Shown: positions 25,691 through 31,250 of the stretch, piece after piece
Layout: each line of letters begins with the position of its first letter
Numbering within the stretch: position 1 is the stretch's first letter
Origin: an uncultured Actinomycetes bacterium
GTDB taxonomy: Bacteria > Actinomycetota > Thermoleophilia > Gaiellales > JALYLC01
DNA length: 64,000 bases
NCBI GenBank assembly: GCA_963713435.1
Contig: CAVQLU010000001.1
Span: forward strand, 86,247 to 150,246
Direction of reading: 5' to 3'
Position numbers and translations under genes: made by a program
Notes under the pieces: generated by a model
Told to the model about the DNA's origin: nothing
The model's database searches: none
Seen by the model: only the letters and a program-made list of their open reading frames with translations

Positions 25691-26254
25691 TCAGGAGCAC
25701 GGGATCTGATCGGGAGCCTGGATGATGAAACCGGCGTAGGGCAACGCGCCACCGTTCTTGTTGGCTCCCGGGGCCTTCGAGTCGTAGAGACCGATGGCGG
25801 TCACGTGCACGAGGTCGGCCGTAGCGAAGAGCCGGTCGCCCATCGTGTAGACGTACGTGCTGCCGTTCTGCGTGCTGAACTTCGAGGGCACGAGCTTGCT
25901 GCCATAGGCTTGCTTCAGCTCGTCCACGGTCGAACAGGGACCGATGCCGGCGGCCGTCTTGTAGGCCTTGTTCCAGGTGGTGATGAGCACCGCTCGGTCG
26001 ACGCCGTCCCGGAAATAGACGTTCATCTTGCGCTTCGGGAACACCAGGCGGGTGAAGTTGTCGGGATCCGTGAAGCCATTTGGCGGCGTCTCCAGACGCG
26101 CGCGCGAACCCAGCACCTGCTTGTAGACGAGCGCCCCCTTGCCGAGCTTCGCGCCCGCGATGGCGTGAGGCGCGATCGTCACGGTCGCTGCCGAAGCGGC
26201 CGCGACGCACGAAAGTCCTGCGATGCACACGGCGATGAGGAAAACCCTTGTCAT
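25691..26254 (-). CDS. Secreted protein homologous to the extracellular domain of the Ser/Thr kinase at 27910-29376
   Basis: Signal peptide; shared IAGAxLG, FPxR..VYF, TWN, TAAG[IV]GPCST, VTA[IV]GL, GGALx[YF]AG; GGAGG RBS. Confidence 0.8.
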   Translation of the reverse strand: MTRVFLIAVCIAGLSCVAAASAATVTIAPHAIAGAKLGKGALVYKQVLGSRARLETPPNGFTDPDNFTRLVFPKRKMNVYFRDGVDRAVLITTWNKAYKTAAGIGPCSTVDELKQAYGSKLVPSKFSTQNGSTYVYTMGDRLFATADLVHVTAIGLYDSKAPGANKNGGALPYAGFIIQAPDQIPCS

Positions 26255-26309
26255 GCGTGAACCACCTCCGGTCGTTGATCGTTGGCGGTCCGACGATGGC
26301 GGTCGTCGT

Positions 26310-26337
26310 TATCGACTCTCTATCGAACGGCTACGGT
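26310..26337. promoter_or_regulatory. Direct repeats with 11-bp period (TATCGA), candidate SARP binding site
   Basis: TATCGA at 26310-26315 and 26321-26326, degenerate third unit at 26332, in the divergent intergenic region. Confidence 0.5.
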
Positions 26338-26345
26338 CCGCGTGC

Positions 26346-27926
26346 GTGCTCGATTTCCGCATCCTCGGGCCCCTCGAAGTGGCAGATGACGGCCGCCCCG
26401 TTCGTCTCGGCGGTCCGAAGCAGCGCGCAACTCTCGCGATCCTGCTTCTGAACGCGAATCGGGTCGTCTCGATCGAGCGACTGGCGGATGACCTCTACGC
26501 CGGCGCCGCGCCTGCCACGGCCGTCGCACAGGTGCAGCGCCAGATCTCGGAGTTGCGCAAGGCGCTCGGTTCTGCCGACAGTGTGGTGACCCAGGCGCCC
26601 GGATACGTTCTCCCCCTCTCACCCGGGCAACTCGACCTCTCTCGCTTCGAGGCGCAGGCGGAGGCCGCAGCGCGGTCTCTGGCGAACGGAGAGCCAGAGC
26701 GCGCCAGCGACCTCTTCCGGGAAGCGCTCGCCTCCTGGCGCGGCGCACCGCTCGCGGATTTCACCTACGAGCTCTTCGCGGGAATCGCGATCGCACGCCT
26801 GGAGGAGATCCGGCTCGCAGCGCTCGAGCAGAGGATCGAAGCCGATCTGGCCCTCGGCCGGCACGTGGCGCTCATCGCCGAGCTCGAGCAATTCGTGCGC
26901 GAGCACCCGCTGCGGGAGACGCTGCGGGCCGAGCTGATGCTCGCCTACTACCGGGCCGGGCGGCAGGTGGACGCGCTGCAGGTCTATCGCAGCACGCGCG
27001 CTCTGCTCGCGTCCGACTTCGGCATCGAGCCGACGCCTGCCCTGCAAAAGCTCGAGCATTCGATCCTCACGCAGGATCCCGCACTCGACCTCGTCGCCAC
27101 CACGACTGCGGTCACAAGTACCGGCTCCTCCATCCTCCTCGTGCCATCGGAGGACGCGGCTCTCGACGCTCTCATGTCGCTCGGCGAGCCTCTCGCAGGT
27201 CTCCCCGAACGCGAGCTGATCGTCGCCCGCCTCGTCAACGACGAGGCGCTCCTGGAAGCGGCCGGAGCGGAGCTGCGGGCGCTCCGTTCAGCTTCGCCCG
27301 TGCCGACCCGCACGGCCGCCTTCACCACGAAGGACGTGGCGTCGGACGCCGCCCGGCTCGTTGCCGCCTATGACGTCCAACTCGTGCTGGTCGACGCGGG
27401 CGCGGGCGACGATGCCCTCTCCGAGGTGATCGCCGACCTCTTCGAGCGCTCGCCGGCCACGGTCGGCGTCCTCCAGGGCACGCCTCCGCCGCTCGGCGCC
27501 GGCAGCGAGATCTTCGTGCCCTTCGGCGGCAGCGAACACGACTGGGCCGCGCTCGAGGTGAGCGCGCTCCTGTGCCTCGCCACGGGAGCGCGGCTGCGCC
27601 TGGTGGGAACGCGTGCGGATCCCGCCTCGGGACGCCGCGATGCGAGCAGGCTGCTCGCCGATGCGGCGCTGGCCGTTCAGAAGGTGGTGGGAGTCGACGC
27701 CGAATCGCTGCTCGCAGAGGCCGACGGAGCCGCGCTGACGGCTGCCGTTCGCCCGGCGACCCTGGTCGTGACGGGCGTTGCGGCGCGTTCGAGGGAAGAA
27801 GGCGTGAGTTCGACCCGCCGGGCGTTGCTGACTGCCGATCGCCCCTTGCTGCTGGTGCATCGCGGTCCGCGGCCGAGCGGCCTCGCACCGGGCGAGAGCC
27901 GTACGCGCTTCAGCTGGTCTCTGTGA
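26346..27926 (+). CDS. SARP (AfsR/DnrI) family regulator: wHTH + BTAD + C-terminal tandem USP-like domains
   Basis: FRILGPLEV, KQRATLAILLLNANRVVS, ALASWRG, HPLRETL..LMLAYYRAGRQ..AL, GIEP; C-terminal IFVPFGGSEHDWAAL. Confidence 0.85.
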   Translation: MLDFRILGPLEVADDGRPVRLGGPKQRATLAILLLNANRVVSIERLADDLYAGAAPATAVAQVQRQISELRKALGSADSVVTQAPGYVLPLSPGQLDLSRFEAQAEAAARSLANGEPERASDLFREALASWRGAPLADFTYELFAGIAIARLEEIRLAALEQRIEADLALGRHVALIAELEQFVREHPLRETLRAELMLAYYRAGRQVDALQVYRSTRALLASDFGIEPTPALQKLEHSILTQDPALDLVATTTAVTSTGSSILLVPSEDAALDALMSLGEPLAGLPERELIVARLVNDEALLEAAGAELRALRSASPVPTRTAAFTTKDVASDAARLVAAYDVQLVLVDAGAGDDALSEVIADLFERSPATVGVLQGTPPPLGAGSEIFVPFGGSEHDWAALEVSALLCLATGARLRLVGTRADPASGRRDASRLLADAALAVQKVVGVDAESLLAEADGAALTAAVRPATLVVTGVAARSREEGVSSTRRALLTADRPLLLVHRGPRPSGLAPGESRTRFSWSL

Positions 27927-29376
27927 ACTCATCGCACGCCGTGGTTGCGTCGATCGCCAGGTAGCCGGCGAACGAGAGCGCCCCACCGGGCTTGGCGGCA
28001 TCGGGAGCGTCGCCGTAGAAGAGCCCGACTGCCGTCACCGTGGGCGACGGAGGAACCCCGTTCGCCGCGAAGATCAGATTCTTCTCGAGCAGGTAGGCGT
28101 AGACGAGCCCCTTCTGCGTGTTGGTCGGCGAGGGTTTGAACGCCTTGCCATAGGTGCGTTTCGCCCCGGCGATCGTCGAGCAGGGTCCGACTCCTGCGGC
28201 CGTCCGGTCATGCCCGTTCCAGGTGATGATCTCGACGGCCGTATCGGTGAAGCCCTTGAAGTAGACGGCGATCCCGCGGTTCGGGAACGTGAGAATCCGG
28301 TGCCCGGAATTGGGCTGCGTCGAAAACTGCCAGGGCTTTCCGAAGTGCTCCTCGTAGGCCTCGGCGCGCAGGCCGAGCGGGGCGCCCGCGATCGACGTGG
28401 GAGTGATCGACGCCGCGTCGGCCTGCCCGTCCCCTCGAAACGTCCACGCGATTCCCAGAGCAACGGCGGCGGCGACGATCAGCACCGCGGCGCCGGCGAT
28501 GAGTCCTCGCCGCCGGCGCCTGGTTCGCGCGATCGGCTCCCCGCGAAGCGCTGATCGCGCCTCATTCATGAGCGCGCCGCAGGTCGGAACGCGTTCTTCG
28601 GGGCGCTTCGCCAGCGCTCGGCCGATGACGTCGTCGAGCGCATCCGGCAACCCCGGGCGGCGCTGCGAGAGCCTGGGCGGCGGCTCGTTCAAGTGGGCGA
28701 AGACGACGGCCAGCTCGCTCTCGCGTTCGAATGGCCGGGCGCCCGCAAGGCACTCGAACAGGACGCAGCCGAGCGAATACACGTCGGCGCGCCCGTCGAC
28801 GGTCCCACCCTCGATCTGCTCGGGCGGCACGTAGTCGATCGTCCCGGCAAAGCCTCTGTCCCCAGTCAGGCTGCTGACCGATGAGACGTGCCGGGCAAGC
28901 CCGAAATCGCAGATGTACGCGTTCTCGTCACCACCGCTCGAGCTGACGAGGATGTTTCCGGGCTTGACGTCGCGGTGCACGAGCCCGGCCGCGTGGGCAG
29001 CGTCGAGCGCTTCCGCGATCTGCCCGAGGAGATGCAGCGCGCGCTCGGGTTCGAGACGGCTTTCCCGGCTCAGAACCTCCCGCAGATCGGAACCCTCGAC
29101 ATACGCCATCGCGAGATAGAGCAGTCCGTCTTCCTCACCCGACGAGAGCGTGGCGACGGCGTGTGGATGCTCGAGGCTGCGGGCGAGCTGCGATTCACGC
29201 AGAAACCGCTGCCTGAAGCGCTCGTCGTTCGCGAGGTCCGGTGCGAGCACCTTGAGCGCGACCGCCTGCCCGTCGGCGTCCTCGGCGAGGTACACCGAGC
29301 CCGTGGCGCCGCTGCCGATGAACCGCGCAATGCGGTAACCCCCGACGACCGTGCCGCTCACGAGCTGGGGTGTCAT
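27910..29376 (-). CDS. Membrane Hanks-type Ser/Thr protein kinase with extracellular C-terminal domain
   Basis: IGSGATGSVY, VALK, HRDVKPGNIL, DFGLAR, GTIDYVPPE, DVYSLG; poly-Arg stretch then a TM helix. Confidence 0.92.
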   Translation of the reverse strand: MTPQLVSGTVVGGYRIARFIGSGATGSVYLAEDADGQAVALKVLAPDLANDERFRQRFLRESQLARSLEHPHAVATLSSGEEDGLLYLAMAYVEGSDLREVLSRESRLEPERALHLLGQIAEALDAAHAAGLVHRDVKPGNILVSSSGGDENAYICDFGLARHVSSVSSLTGDRGFAGTIDYVPPEQIEGGTVDGRADVYSLGCVLFECLAGARPFERESELAVVFAHLNEPPPRLSQRRPGLPDALDDVIGRALAKRPEERVPTCGALMNEARSALRGEPIARTRRRRRGLIAGAAVLIVAAAVALGIAWTFRGDGQADAASITPTSIAGAPLGLRAEAYEEHFGKPWQFSTQPNSGHRILTFPNRGIAVYFKGFTDTAVEIITWNGHDRTAAGVGPCSTIAGAKRTYGKAFKPSPTNTQKGLVYAYLLEKNLIFAANGVPPSPTVTAVGLFYGDAPDAAKPGGALSFAGYLAIDATTACDEFTETS

Positions 29377-29406: not shown

Positions 29407-30069
29407 CTATGGAAGGCGCGCGTCGCCCTCGAAAATCCCGGTCTCGTACGCGAGCACGACCGCCTGCACGCGGTCGCGCAGTTCGAGCTTCTGCAAGATA
29501 TGCGTGACGTGCGTCTTGACGGTCGTGTCGCTGATGTAGAGCTCGCGACCGATCTCGGCGTTCGAGAGGCCGCGGGCGATCAGGCGGAAGACCTCGAGCT
29601 CGCGCTCCGTCAGCTCGTCGAGCTGCTTCGGAGGAGCCGGCTGCGGAATGCGGGTGAACCGCGTGATCACGCGCTTGGTGATGGAGGGCGAGAGCAGCGC
29701 CTCGCCGCCCGCAACGATGCGCACCGCGGCGATCAGCTGCTCGGGCGGGTCGTCCTTGAGCACGAAGCCGCTGGCGCCGGCGCGGAGCGCCTCGTAGACG
29801 TATTCGTCGAGGTCGAACGTCGTCAGGATCATGACCCGCGCGCCGGCGTCGGCGGCCAGGATCCGTCGCGTGGCCTCGAGGCCGTCGAGCTCGGGCATGC
29901 GGATGTCCATCAGGACGACGTTGGGATGGAAGCGCGCGGCCTTCTCGACCGCCTCGAGCCCGTTGCTGGCCTCGGCGACCACTTCGATCCCCTCCTCGCC
30001 GGCCAACAGCATGCGGAAACCGGCGCGCACCATCGACTGGTCGTCGGCGACGAGGACGCGGATCGTCAT
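29407..30069 (-). CDS. NarL/LuxR family response regulator
   Basis: VLMDIRMP, LTTFD, LTERELEV..GLSNAEIG..TVKTHV. Confidence 0.93.
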   Translation of the reverse strand: MTIRVLVADDQSMVRAGFRMLLAGEEGIEVVAEASNGLEAVEKAARFHPNVVLMDIRMPELDGLEATRRILAADAGARVMILTTFDLDEYVYEALRAGASGFVLKDDPPEQLIAAVRIVAGGEALLSPSITKRVITRFTRIPQPAPPKQLDELTERELEVFRLIARGLSNAEIGRELYISDTTVKTHVTHILQKLELRDRVQAVVLAYETGIFEGDARLP

Positions 30070-31250
30070 GGCCGGTCGCCGCCGAGCGGGAGGCGTGTGC
30101 TGAGCAGGAATCCGCCCCCGCTCGCCGCTCCCGCGGTCATCTCTCCGCCGTAGATCTTCACGCGTTCCCGCACGCCGATCAGGCCGTAGCCGAGACCGGC
30201 GCCGCCCCCGTCGCCGTCGCCGTCGTCGCGCACCTCGATCTGCAGCTCGTCGGGCCGGTAGCGCACGGTCACATCGGCCTGGCTGGCGCCCGCGTGCTTG
30301 AGCGCATTGGTCAGGCCCTCCTGGACGATTCGATAGGCCGAGAGGTCGATCGCCTGCGGAACCGGGACGGGCTCGCCGTCAACGTGCAGCCGTACGGGAA
30401 GGCCCGCGCGTGCGATCTCCTCGAGCAGCGCGTCGAGCCTGCCGAGGCCGGGCTGGGGCGTGAGCTCGAGCTCGTCGTCGTCGCGGCGCAGCGCCCCGAG
30501 CAGGAGGCGCATCTCGGCGAGCGAGGCGCGGCCGGTCTGCTCGACGCCGCGCAGTGCATCCGACTCGTCGCCGAGCGCCGCGGGAAGCTTGTGCCGGACA
30601 GCGCCGACCTGGAGCACCATCACGCTGACCGTGTGGGCGACGATGTCGTGGAGCTCGCGGGCGATCCGCGCGCGCTCCTCCGCGACGGCGATGCGCGCAG
30701 CCGTCTCGCGATCCCGCTCGGCCTGTGCCGCACGTGCCTCGGCAGCCTCGGCCTGCTCGGCCCGCTCGCGCAGCGCGAAGCCCGCCAGCCAAGCGATCGC
30801 GAACACCACCGGCGTGAAGACGAAATCGCCGGCTGCGTGGGCCGGGTTGTTGTAGACGATGATCGTCGTGCTGCAGAGCAGGATCGCCAATCCCAGCCAG
30901 GCCTGCACGGCGTCGCTGAGGTTGCCGAGCAGGAATGCGGCGGCCATGCCGATGGCGAAGAGGCTTGCCGTGAACACGACGATGCGCCCGTCGGCGAATG
31001 AGAGCGCGGCCGAGAAGAGCCACACGACAACGGGCGCCGCGAAGGGATAGCGCCTGCGCGCGAGCAGCGGCAGACACAGCGCAGCGGTCGCCGGAATGGC
31101 GAACCAGAGGGTCGAGCGCGGCGCGTTGGCCGAGTCGCTGCGAAGGGCGACCTCGAGCGCGCTCTCCACCGCCGCGAGCACGATCAGCGCGTCGAACCCG
31201 TAGCGGCGGGCGAGAGACCGGAGGCGGCTCACAGGGTGAACGTACTCCAC
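30066..31250 (-). CDS. Sensor histidine kinase (HisKA_3)
   Basis: ERARIARELHDIVAH, QEGLTNALKHA, DDG, GYGLIGVRERV. Confidence 0.92.
   Translation of the reverse strand: MEYVHPVSRLRSLARRYGFDALIVLAAVESALEVALRSDSANAPRSTLWFAIPATAALCLPLLARRRYPFAAPVVVWLFSAALSFADGRIVVFTASLFAIGMAAAFLLGNLSDAVQAWLGLAILLCSTTIIVYNNPAHAAGDFVFTPVVFAIAWLAGFALRERAEQAEAAEARAAQAERDRETAARIAVAEERARIARELHDIVAHTVSVMVLQVGAVRHKLPAALGDESDALRGVEQTGRASLAEMRLLLGALRRDDDELELTPQPGLGRLDALLEEIARAGLPVRLHVDGEPVPVPQAIDLSAYRIVQEGLTNALKHAGASQADVTVRYRPDELQIEVRDDGDGDGGGAGLGYGLIGVRERVKIYGGEMTAGAASGGGFLLSTRLPLGGDRP

Follow-up and report, generated by a model that had tools for sequence, protein, structure and literature searches.

The coupling of a Hanks-type Ser/Thr kinase to a regulator of the SARP (Streptomyces antibiotic regulatory protein) family is known from two textbook cases, PknH/EmbR of Mycobacterium tuberculosis and AfsK/AfsR of Streptomyces, in both of which the signal, the operator, and the role of phosphorylation in vivo are disputed. 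As described in the available parts of the cited papers, PknH is a single-pass receptor kinase with an extracellular sensor, encoded beside EmbR, a SARP with one extra C-terminal domain that is a kinase substrate in vitro (PMC9239209). In Streptomyces, the Ser/Thr kinase AfsK phosphorylates a SARP that binds 11-bp direct repeats over the -35 region, and the system includes a kinase-binding modulator, KbpA (PMC10972967, PMC10936776). Here, we analyzed a 64,000-nucleotide (nt) stretch of DNA (hereafter, the window; positions 86,247 to 150,246 of contig CAVQLU010000001.1, assembly GCA_963713435.1) from an uncultured bacterium of the Gaiellales (Thermoleophilia). Based on its open reading frames (ORFs) and their translations, a three-gene region of the window (25691-29376) encodes a secreted protein (hereafter, SEC; minus strand), a SARP (plus strand), and a Hanks-type kinase (minus strand). 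The source is a metagenome-assembled genome (MAG) of 3.32 Mb (3,322,336 bases, 15 contigs, 55% complete).

The closest known system is PknH/EmbR, which shares with the window the single-pass kinase with an extracellular sensor next to a SARP that carries one extra C-terminal domain. However, this extra domain is FHA in EmbR, where it serves to dock the kinase, whereas here it is a tandem universal stress protein (USP) region, and no FHA domain was present among the Pfam matches of the window SARP at E <= 1. Furthermore, embR and pknH lie in one operon whereas the genes converge here, the PknH sensor has the PknH_C fold whereas the sensor here is yfeY/BLIP-like, and the regulator here is adjoined by a defined operator with its cargo genes. 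The AfsK/AfsR/KbpA system is similar in its 11-bp direct repeats, the counterpart of which in the window is a box predicted from sequence. In contrast, AfsR contains NOD/NB-ARC and TPR domains and no USP, and KbpA does not duplicate a sensor domain. KbpA is cytoplasmic and, to our knowledge, AfsK has no extracellular sensor of this kind. Kinase-less exported proteins with the sensor domain of a kinase from the same organism are described in M. tuberculosis, i.e., the PknH-like sensor domain proteins Rv3705c, LpqQ, LprH, LppH, and LpqA (PMC4118811), but these are of another fold and family. A few searches, covering part of the literature, returned no report of exported sensor-domain copies under the operator of the partner regulator. 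We know of no report that places PknH-like domain paralogs beside their partner regulator or under its operator.

Comparison of the window with related loci shows that the conserved unit comprises a kinase with a yfeY/BLIP-like ectodomain, a convergent SARP-USP gene, and a box that faces a variable gene encoding a signal peptide. What is shown in silico comprises gene order, folds, operator, the geometry of the promoter, and that the cargo is secreted. We interpret the window locus as an example of a signalling cassette that is specific to a lineage of uncultured Gaiellales/Thermoleophilia, and to this reading, mechanism included, we assign a probability of roughly 0.6. Under this mechanism, the kinase would report an extracellular cue by phosphorylating SARP-USP, the SARP would occupy the box, which would stand in for a -35 element, and activate the cargo gene, and the secreted paralog would bind what the sensor binds, thereafter either neutralizing the ligand or damping the signal.

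To examine gene order, we assembled 34 loci from species-representative genomes, 80 metagenome loci, loci from genomes of relatives, and the window, which together formed 107 non-redundant groups. The 34 species-representative loci all derive from MAGs labelled Gaiellaceae, Thermoleophilia, Actinomycetes, or Actinomycetota, with one labelled Verrucomicrobiota. Among the non-redundant domain-bearing kinases with at least 1 kb of downstream sequence, 58/62 have a convergent SARP-USP gene within 1.6 kb. The four unpaired kinases are those of L047 (where the SARP is present in another order), L120, and L122, and, in L104, which has two kinases in tandem, the first one. Conversely counted, 73 non-redundant loci contain the C-terminal domain of SARP-USP, and a kinase-type or contig-edge copy of the sensor domain is found in 71 of them. 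One contig, L066 (1-4652), is a near-perfect palindrome (a kinase and then the SARP C-terminal end, mirrored) that is most likely an assembly artefact; it was kept in the counts, and its two mirrored kinase copies may each count as a pair. The genome of the window has two further SARP-USP paralogs (G000:C10:137807-139378 [L128] and G000:C14:285513-287115 [L129]; 46% and 55%/45% identity), and each of them converges with the gene of a Hanks kinase (ORF lengths of 755 or 791 amino acids [aa]) that has a DUF6923/Vgb_lyase-like part, with a Peripla_BP_6 or SBP_bac_5 ORF between kinase and SARP. The extracellular parts of these kinases are beta-propeller-like and solute-binding-like, not yfeY/BLIP-like, showing that the pairing of kinase and SARP-USP does not depend on the yfeY/BLIP-like sensor. 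Phosphorylation of the SARP by the kinase is inferred from the 58/62 adjacency, from a pairing that survives exchange of the sensor, and from the precedents of PknH/EmbR and AfsK/AfsR.

In the window, the kinase gene (27910-29376, minus strand; 488 aa) encodes a kinase domain at 28585-29337 (Pkinase PF00069, E 5.7e-48, residues 14-264) with HRDVKPGN and DFG motifs, a transmembrane helix at about 28441-28509 (a hydrophobic stretch at about residues 290-312 of the translation), and an extracellular yfeY/BLIP-like domain at 27913-28431. The SARP gene was first called as an ORF at 26223-27926 (plus strand), but homolog alignments place its start at 26346 rather than 26223, at a GTG that is conserved in six aligned loci, resulting in a protein of 526 aa (26346-27926) and an intergenic region of 91 nt (26255-26345) between it and the SEC gene. 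The SEC gene (25691-26254, minus strand) encodes a 187-aa product in which a signal peptide at the N-terminus precedes a single yfeY/BLIP-like domain. The SARP gene is thus divergent from the SEC gene and convergent with the kinase gene, and the kinase and SARP genes share 17 nt (27910-27926) at their 3' ends. In 48/73 kinase/SARP match pairs from other loci, the gap is <=90 nt, leaving no space for a terminator between the two genes. Upstream of the kinase gene, on the same strand and after a gap of 30 nt, are genes for a response regulator of the NarL/LuxR type (29407-30069) and a histidine kinase (30066-31250, minus strand), which may form one operon with the Hanks kinase gene; this neighbourhood is not common to the other loci.

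Alignment of the SARP-SEC intergenic regions of six loci revealed the box, a SARP-type operator of three direct repeats with an 11-nt period that faces SEC (26309-26335, minus strand; window copy CGTAGCCGTTCGATAGAGAGTCGATAA, family consensus GGTAGCCGCTCGATAGCGGCTCGGTAG). The strict pattern matches only twice in the 3,322,336-base assembly, at 26309-26335 (minus strand) and at C15:149537 (plus strand), and a weight matrix (PWM) scores these sites at 33.5 and 31.1, respectively, with the next best site in the assembly at 17.8. Across non-redundant loci, a strict box lies on the opposite strand within 45 nt of the SARP start in 43/59 cases; of the other 16 starts, seven have a degenerate box at the same place and three belong to other SARP paralogs. 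Beside the two paralogs in the same genome (L128, L129), neither GGTAG-type repeats nor other 3 x 11-nt repeats were found.

Downstream of the box, 57 distinct promoters share an A at +12 (54/57) and a T at +16 (53/57), both of which are present in the window, and this pattern points to a -10 element at a fixed distance. The predicted -10 element of SEC (CATCGT, 26293-26298, minus strand) starts 10 nt after the box, which would put the predicted transcript start at about 26286 (minus strand), and a ribosome-binding site (GGAGG, 26265-26269, minus strand) lies 10 nt before the ATG; a similar purine run was seen by eye at this position in most of the aligned cargo promoters. SARP target sites follow a published rule in which direct repeats with an 11-bp period overlap the -35 region and 8 bp separate the 3' repeat from the -10 element (as given in the accessible text of PMC10936776 and PMC10972967). 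When the heptamer is taken as GRTAGCG, the 3' repeat of the box is 8 bp away from the -10 element, and the box, counted from the -10 position, spans roughly -49 to -23 of the promoter, a geometry that fits this rule at the level of sequence. The control of the SEC gene by the SARP is therefore a prediction that is supported in silico.

On the other strand, a candidate -10 element of the SARP gene itself (TACGGT, 26332-26337, plus strand), which would give rise to a leaderless transcript, overlaps repeat 1 of the box. A TAnnnT hexamer occurs at this position in 36/43 SARP-adjacent boxes versus 7/13 non-adjacent boxes, a weak discrimination, and it lies 6-9 nt before the first SARP start codon in 32/43 of the SARP-adjacent boxes. 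This overlap suggests SARP autoregulation, and because repeat 1 coincides with its own putative leaderless promoter, the SARP may limit its own synthesis. Additional boxes that are not at a SARP start precede more signal-peptide genes in L025 (561), L029 (4763), L034 (258), L101 (2705), L105 (8289), and L120 (4880). Some of the additional boxes are just upstream of a kinase gene, and the kinase itself may be under the operator in those genomes.

The genes that follow the box encode secreted proteins of many kinds. A signal-peptide-like start was found in 51/55 distinct first ORFs after the box, and of the four exceptions no fewer than three resemble, by eye, mis-called ORFs. The first ORFs (n = 60) fall into at least 11 unrelated families, including the standalone sensor-like domain (8), a 284-aa family (8), a 735-aa family (6), a family of about 310 aa (6), GDSL-like proteins (5), beta-helix proteins (4), PD40 proteins (4), and others. 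The 735-aa, 324-aa, and 284-aa families had no PDB sequence match at E <= 0.01 and no Pfam match. SEC-type genes start 40-54 nt after the box and have a GGAGG, and the distance is 22-24 nt for the 735-aa cargo genes, the transcripts of which are probably leaderless. The second box in the assembly (G000:C15:149537-149563; L127 4038-4064) is 56 nt before a signal-peptide PD40 (TolB-like) gene (ORF L127 from 4120), the product of which matches PD40 at E 2e-19 and belongs to a family that also adjoins the SARP gene in L027, L105, and L106.

The regulator combines a SARP module with a C-terminal region of another type. Its putative N-terminal, OmpR-type winged-helix DNA-binding domain (about 26412-26579) is a borderline match to Trans_reg_C (26.1 bits, E 9.4e-06; curated cut-off, 26.2 bits), which the SARP-USP paralog in L128 exceeds (33.7 bits). 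The BTAD (about 26631-27068) matches PF03704 over its full length (1-146 of 146, E 2.8e-46), and the AfsR model of NCBIfam aligns by its N-terminal region over positions 25-280 (E 2e-53). The C-terminal 267 aa after the BTAD (tandem USP, 27123-27923) gave an AlphaFold2 model with a pLDDT of 87.9, for which Foldseek returned TTHA0350 (3ab7; E 7e-10, probability 1.00), Rv2623 (E 2e-9), and then UspE. Pfam detects Usp in 12/24 homologous C-terminal regions (best E 3.3e-06), and a lead from the Atlas agrees. Judged by its model, this part of the regulator is a tandem USP, with two USP units as in TTHA0350 and Rv2623 but, unlike in those proteins, fused to the SARP DNA-binding and activation module. 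A review sorts SARPs by architecture into small, medium (NB-ARC), and large (TPR, cyclase/LAL-like) types, and the term 'universal stress protein' is absent from the portion of its text that was available (PMC10972967); a limited literature search returned no description of a SARP-USP fusion. The extreme C-terminal tail (...SRTRFSWSL; about 27897-27923, plus strand) is modelled as disordered (pLDDT < 50), and among 24 homologs F263 and W265 are invariant and T261 is conserved in at least 90%. This tail may be a kinase docking or phospho-acceptor motif.

SEC residues 21-177 and kinase residues 318-473 form a single collinear BLASTP alignment (66/161 identities [41%], E 6e-32). An earlier, sequence-only reading of this DNA had described the two as collinear homologs, and every segment pair that it listed falls inside the alignment; the gene order that it gave for the SARP was likewise correct, and the domain that it did not recognise indeed has no match among Pfam or NCBIfam models. 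The tandem USP domain of the regulator was missed by that reading. A word-indexed search identified 53 standalone homologs (102-328 aa), all unnamed or 'hypothetical', and 41 longer homologs, 40 of which contain Pkinase and are about 450-530 aa long. A profile built from 43 standalone members matched 329 cluster representatives among 1.84 billion at E <= 1e-3, and the assembly of the window has only two copies of the domain (SEC and the kinase). The family is small, with two main forms (standalone and kinase-borne). The motif TWN..T..G.GPC is invariant in the 43 standalone members, and in an alignment of 32 kinase ectodomains its T, W, and T and the G.GPCS are invariant. The GPCS cysteine is invariant in both sets, and the C-terminal cysteine is conserved in at least 90% of the standalone members and is the majority residue in the kinase ectodomains; a disulfide between Cys107 and Cys186 is proposed for SEC. 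The domain is patchy in the class, with presence in 6/61 relatives and 16/401 sampled class genomes, many of the genomes being incomplete.

The AlphaFold2 model of SEC has a pLDDT of 88.7, and in an exhaustive structural search (VIA-align; 48,161 chains) just four chains reached Z >= 8: E. coli YfeY (DUF1131; 2qzb, Z 10.3, 122 aa, root-mean-square deviation 3.6), the non-CAP domain of a CAP_assoc_N protein (4ifa, Z 9.3), YjgB (DUF4309; 4ygt, Z 8.8), and 4h0a (Z 8.2). Weaker matches were BamE, over one half only (Z 6.2), and BLIP-like entries (Z about 4.3). Foldseek gave no match to the SEC model at E <= 0.001 (best E 7.3e-03, probability 0.95). At the level of profiles, the 43 family members had no significant Pfam match (DUF4309 once, E 0.18), none of them significantly matched the DUF1131, DUF4309, CAP_assoc_N, or BLIP sequence models, a PDB profile search of the domain gave nothing significant (best E 1.7), and DUF1131 appeared in the Atlas only at 0.81, as a lead and no more. 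The domain thus resembles DUF1131 (YfeY), DUF4309 (YjgB), CAP_assoc_N, BLIP, and BamE in its fold of tandem helix plus beta-sheet units but, unlike a member of those families, does not match them in sequence. ECOD, according to the accessible part of its description, unites the yfeY-like, DUF4309, and CAP_assoc_N groups with cystatin-like and BLIP-like inhibitor domains (PMC11836899); the corresponding Pfam clan is PepSY. On its model, we take the domain to have a yfeY/BLIP-like fold and to represent a sequence family that is new. A limited literature search found no kinase ectodomain of this fold, and none of those families appeared as a kinase ectodomain in our searches.

Several relatives of the domain have other arrangements. 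Long-form kinases of 883-899 aa (L023 6092-8749, L024 6050-8701, L028 2523-5192, and L040 6020-8719) extend extracellularly by about 400 residues beyond the BLIP-like domain, and two kinase-less proteins (P0119, 623 aa; P0125, 597 aa) combine the domain with the long-form kinase extension (41-66% identity). The idea that the 735-aa cargo is a copy of this extension was rejected, given no BLASTP match at 1e-3. A standalone copy (L026 7001-7363) on the MAG contig labelled Verrucomicrobiota is sister to a metagenome copy (L117; support 99, short branches), reflecting either mis-binning or gene transfer.

A standalone paralog was found in 8/73 non-redundant SARP-USP loci. It is divergent from the SARP gene in the window, L013, L028, L049, L050, and L051 (6/58 SARP starts with at least 700 nt upstream), co-directional and after the SARP gene in L047, and in tandem after the kinase gene in L005. 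All eight SARP-linked paralogs, in these three gene orders, are preceded by a box (PWM 19.7-37.1); six of the boxes meet the strict pattern, and those of L047 (24.2) and L005 (19.7) are weaker. A box and a paralog also occur in L014 and L054, where no SARP is seen. Of 13 SARP-unlinked standalone copies (at least 1.2 kb on both sides), none has a box at a score >= 16, and the genome background is three matches at this score in 3.3 Mb. In two quick IQ-TREE trees (80 and 81 rows) with an unresolved backbone, the window SEC is placed with standalone proteins (support 87 for a clade of 23 in the first tree, support 82 for a group of 15 in the second) and the window kinase ectodomain with kinase domains. 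Unlinked standalone copies are mixed in with box-linked ones, and only the L005 copy groups with kinases. The L028 copy appeared as an independent offshoot of a kinase in the first tree, an interpretation that was dropped given that the second tree places it, on a long branch, among the standalone proteins. The identity of the window SEC is 44% to its own kinase domain versus 48% to the kinase domain of L050. The trees and identities, lacking matched pairs, indicate that SEC belongs to an old standalone lineage that recurs under this operator and is neither a recent nor a co-evolving copy of the sensor.

These results bear on three further proposals of the sequence-only reading. Its induction of the soluble copy by the SARP is consistent with the operator and fixed-distance -10 element in the region that it named as the promoter (26255-26345) and with the box before all eight SARP-linked paralogs, two of them weak (24.2 and 19.7). 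The kinase-SARP-soluble triad, the recurrence of which it suggested testing, is present in eight of 73 loci and in three gene orders but is absent from the other 65, and it does not appear to be the conserved unit. Its co-divergence of sensor and soluble domains did not hold, with the own kinase being the best match in only 2/7 triads and the two domains falling into separate tree groups. A role of the soluble protein as decoy, titrator, or inhibitor, which that reading also raised, is inferred.

A number of observations weigh against the cassette mechanism. The 65/73 modules without an adjacent standalone paralog have a box that faces other, unrelated secreted proteins, and feedback by a sensor copy is therefore not essential to the cassette. 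The own kinase is the best match of the soluble protein in only two of seven triads, with no self-matching, and the L005 arrangement rests on an unpublished genome (G003). All loci are MAG or metagenome contigs, the related ones among them not being independent, and the two-box regulon is a lower bound in an assembly that is 55% complete. A search of sequencing runs listed no RNA run that contains the stretch; it listed 20 DNA-like runs with part of it, just one of them with at least half of its words. The USP region of the window SARP falls below the Pfam Usp threshold. USP domains that bind ATP have the motif G-x2-G-x9-G-(S/T), and no clear canonical ATP-binding motif was seen by eye in the USP-region consensus of the SARP homologs. 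Lastly, among the passages available, EmbR phosphorylation was undetected in vivo under normal growth (PMC9239209) and AfsK phosphorylation was judged an unlikely trigger of AfsR activation (PMC10936776).

Among the alternatives, the one that best survives, and which we consider possible though less probable than the cassette mechanism, is that the secreted paralog is one of many interchangeable outputs, in which case its homology to the sensor would reflect the common descent of an envelope-binding module, with neither titration nor neutralization. The presence of at least 11 unrelated cargo families at similar frequencies, the absence of co-divergence between soluble and sensor domains, and the box-less unlinked copies that are interspersed with box-linked ones in the tree all fit this explanation. 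However, a domain this rare (329 of 1.84 billion representatives; two copies in the assembly) nonetheless ties as the commonest cargo (8/60) and is under the box in three different gene orders, and the motif TWN..T..G.GPCS, invariant in both soluble and kinase-borne forms, fits a shared binding function. More doubtful is a 'sense and neutralise' system, in which the BLIP/cystatin-like ectodomain would recognise an extracellular protein (e.g., a foreign or self hydrolase) and the soluble paralog would be secreted via SARP-USP as a stoichiometric inhibitor, alongside other box-controlled secreted proteins (PD40 propeller, GDSL-like, beta-helix, and unknown families).

It is improbable that the kinase and SARP-USP act in separate pathways, with the USP region sensing a nucleotide or metabolic state and alone controlling the regulator while the kinase has other substrates. 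Related solved USP domains do bind nucleotides (e.g., TTHA0350 with ATP, 3ab8), and the published doubts on kinase control of EmbR and AfsR (PMC9239209 and PMC10936776, in their available parts) point in the same direction. The convergent adjacency of 58/62, with 3' ends that often overlap or nearly abut, argues against this separation, as does the pairing that persists with a swapped sensor in two further pairs of the same genome. A dedicated conserved triad, with sensor and soluble domains co-evolving as a matched pair (e.g., a heterodimeric co-receptor), is highly improbable: the order of the window recurs in L013, L049, and L050 (and in L051 the SARP and paralog genes are divergent on a contig that ends before any kinase), with other orders in L028, L047, and L005, but a divergent standalone copy is present at only 6/58 SARP starts and any copy in only 8/73 modules, the own kinase is the best match in 2/7 triads, and the window soluble protein lies in standalone-only groups, apart from the domain of its kinase.

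Returning to the cassette as we read it, what is new here is the type of kinase ectodomain, an architecture of SARP plus tandem USP that lies outside those of the cited review, a sharply defined operator whose promoter geometry is fixed, and a small, readable regulon of secreted proteins. It is in the operator and the modular cassette, more than in the triad itself, that the new content is strongest. The cassette represents a compact natural system, all parts of which can be read from sequence, from a soil lineage that has hardly been studied, and its parts are small enough to be rebuilt in a model actinobacterium. Soluble copies of the sensor domain are frequent as cargo, which raises the testable idea of ligand titration or neutralization, a feature that would be unusual for bacterial Ser/Thr kinase signalling. 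If the sense-and-neutralise proposal were true, the cassette would serve soil Thermoleophilia as a modular switch for defence and secretion, with exchangeable sensors.

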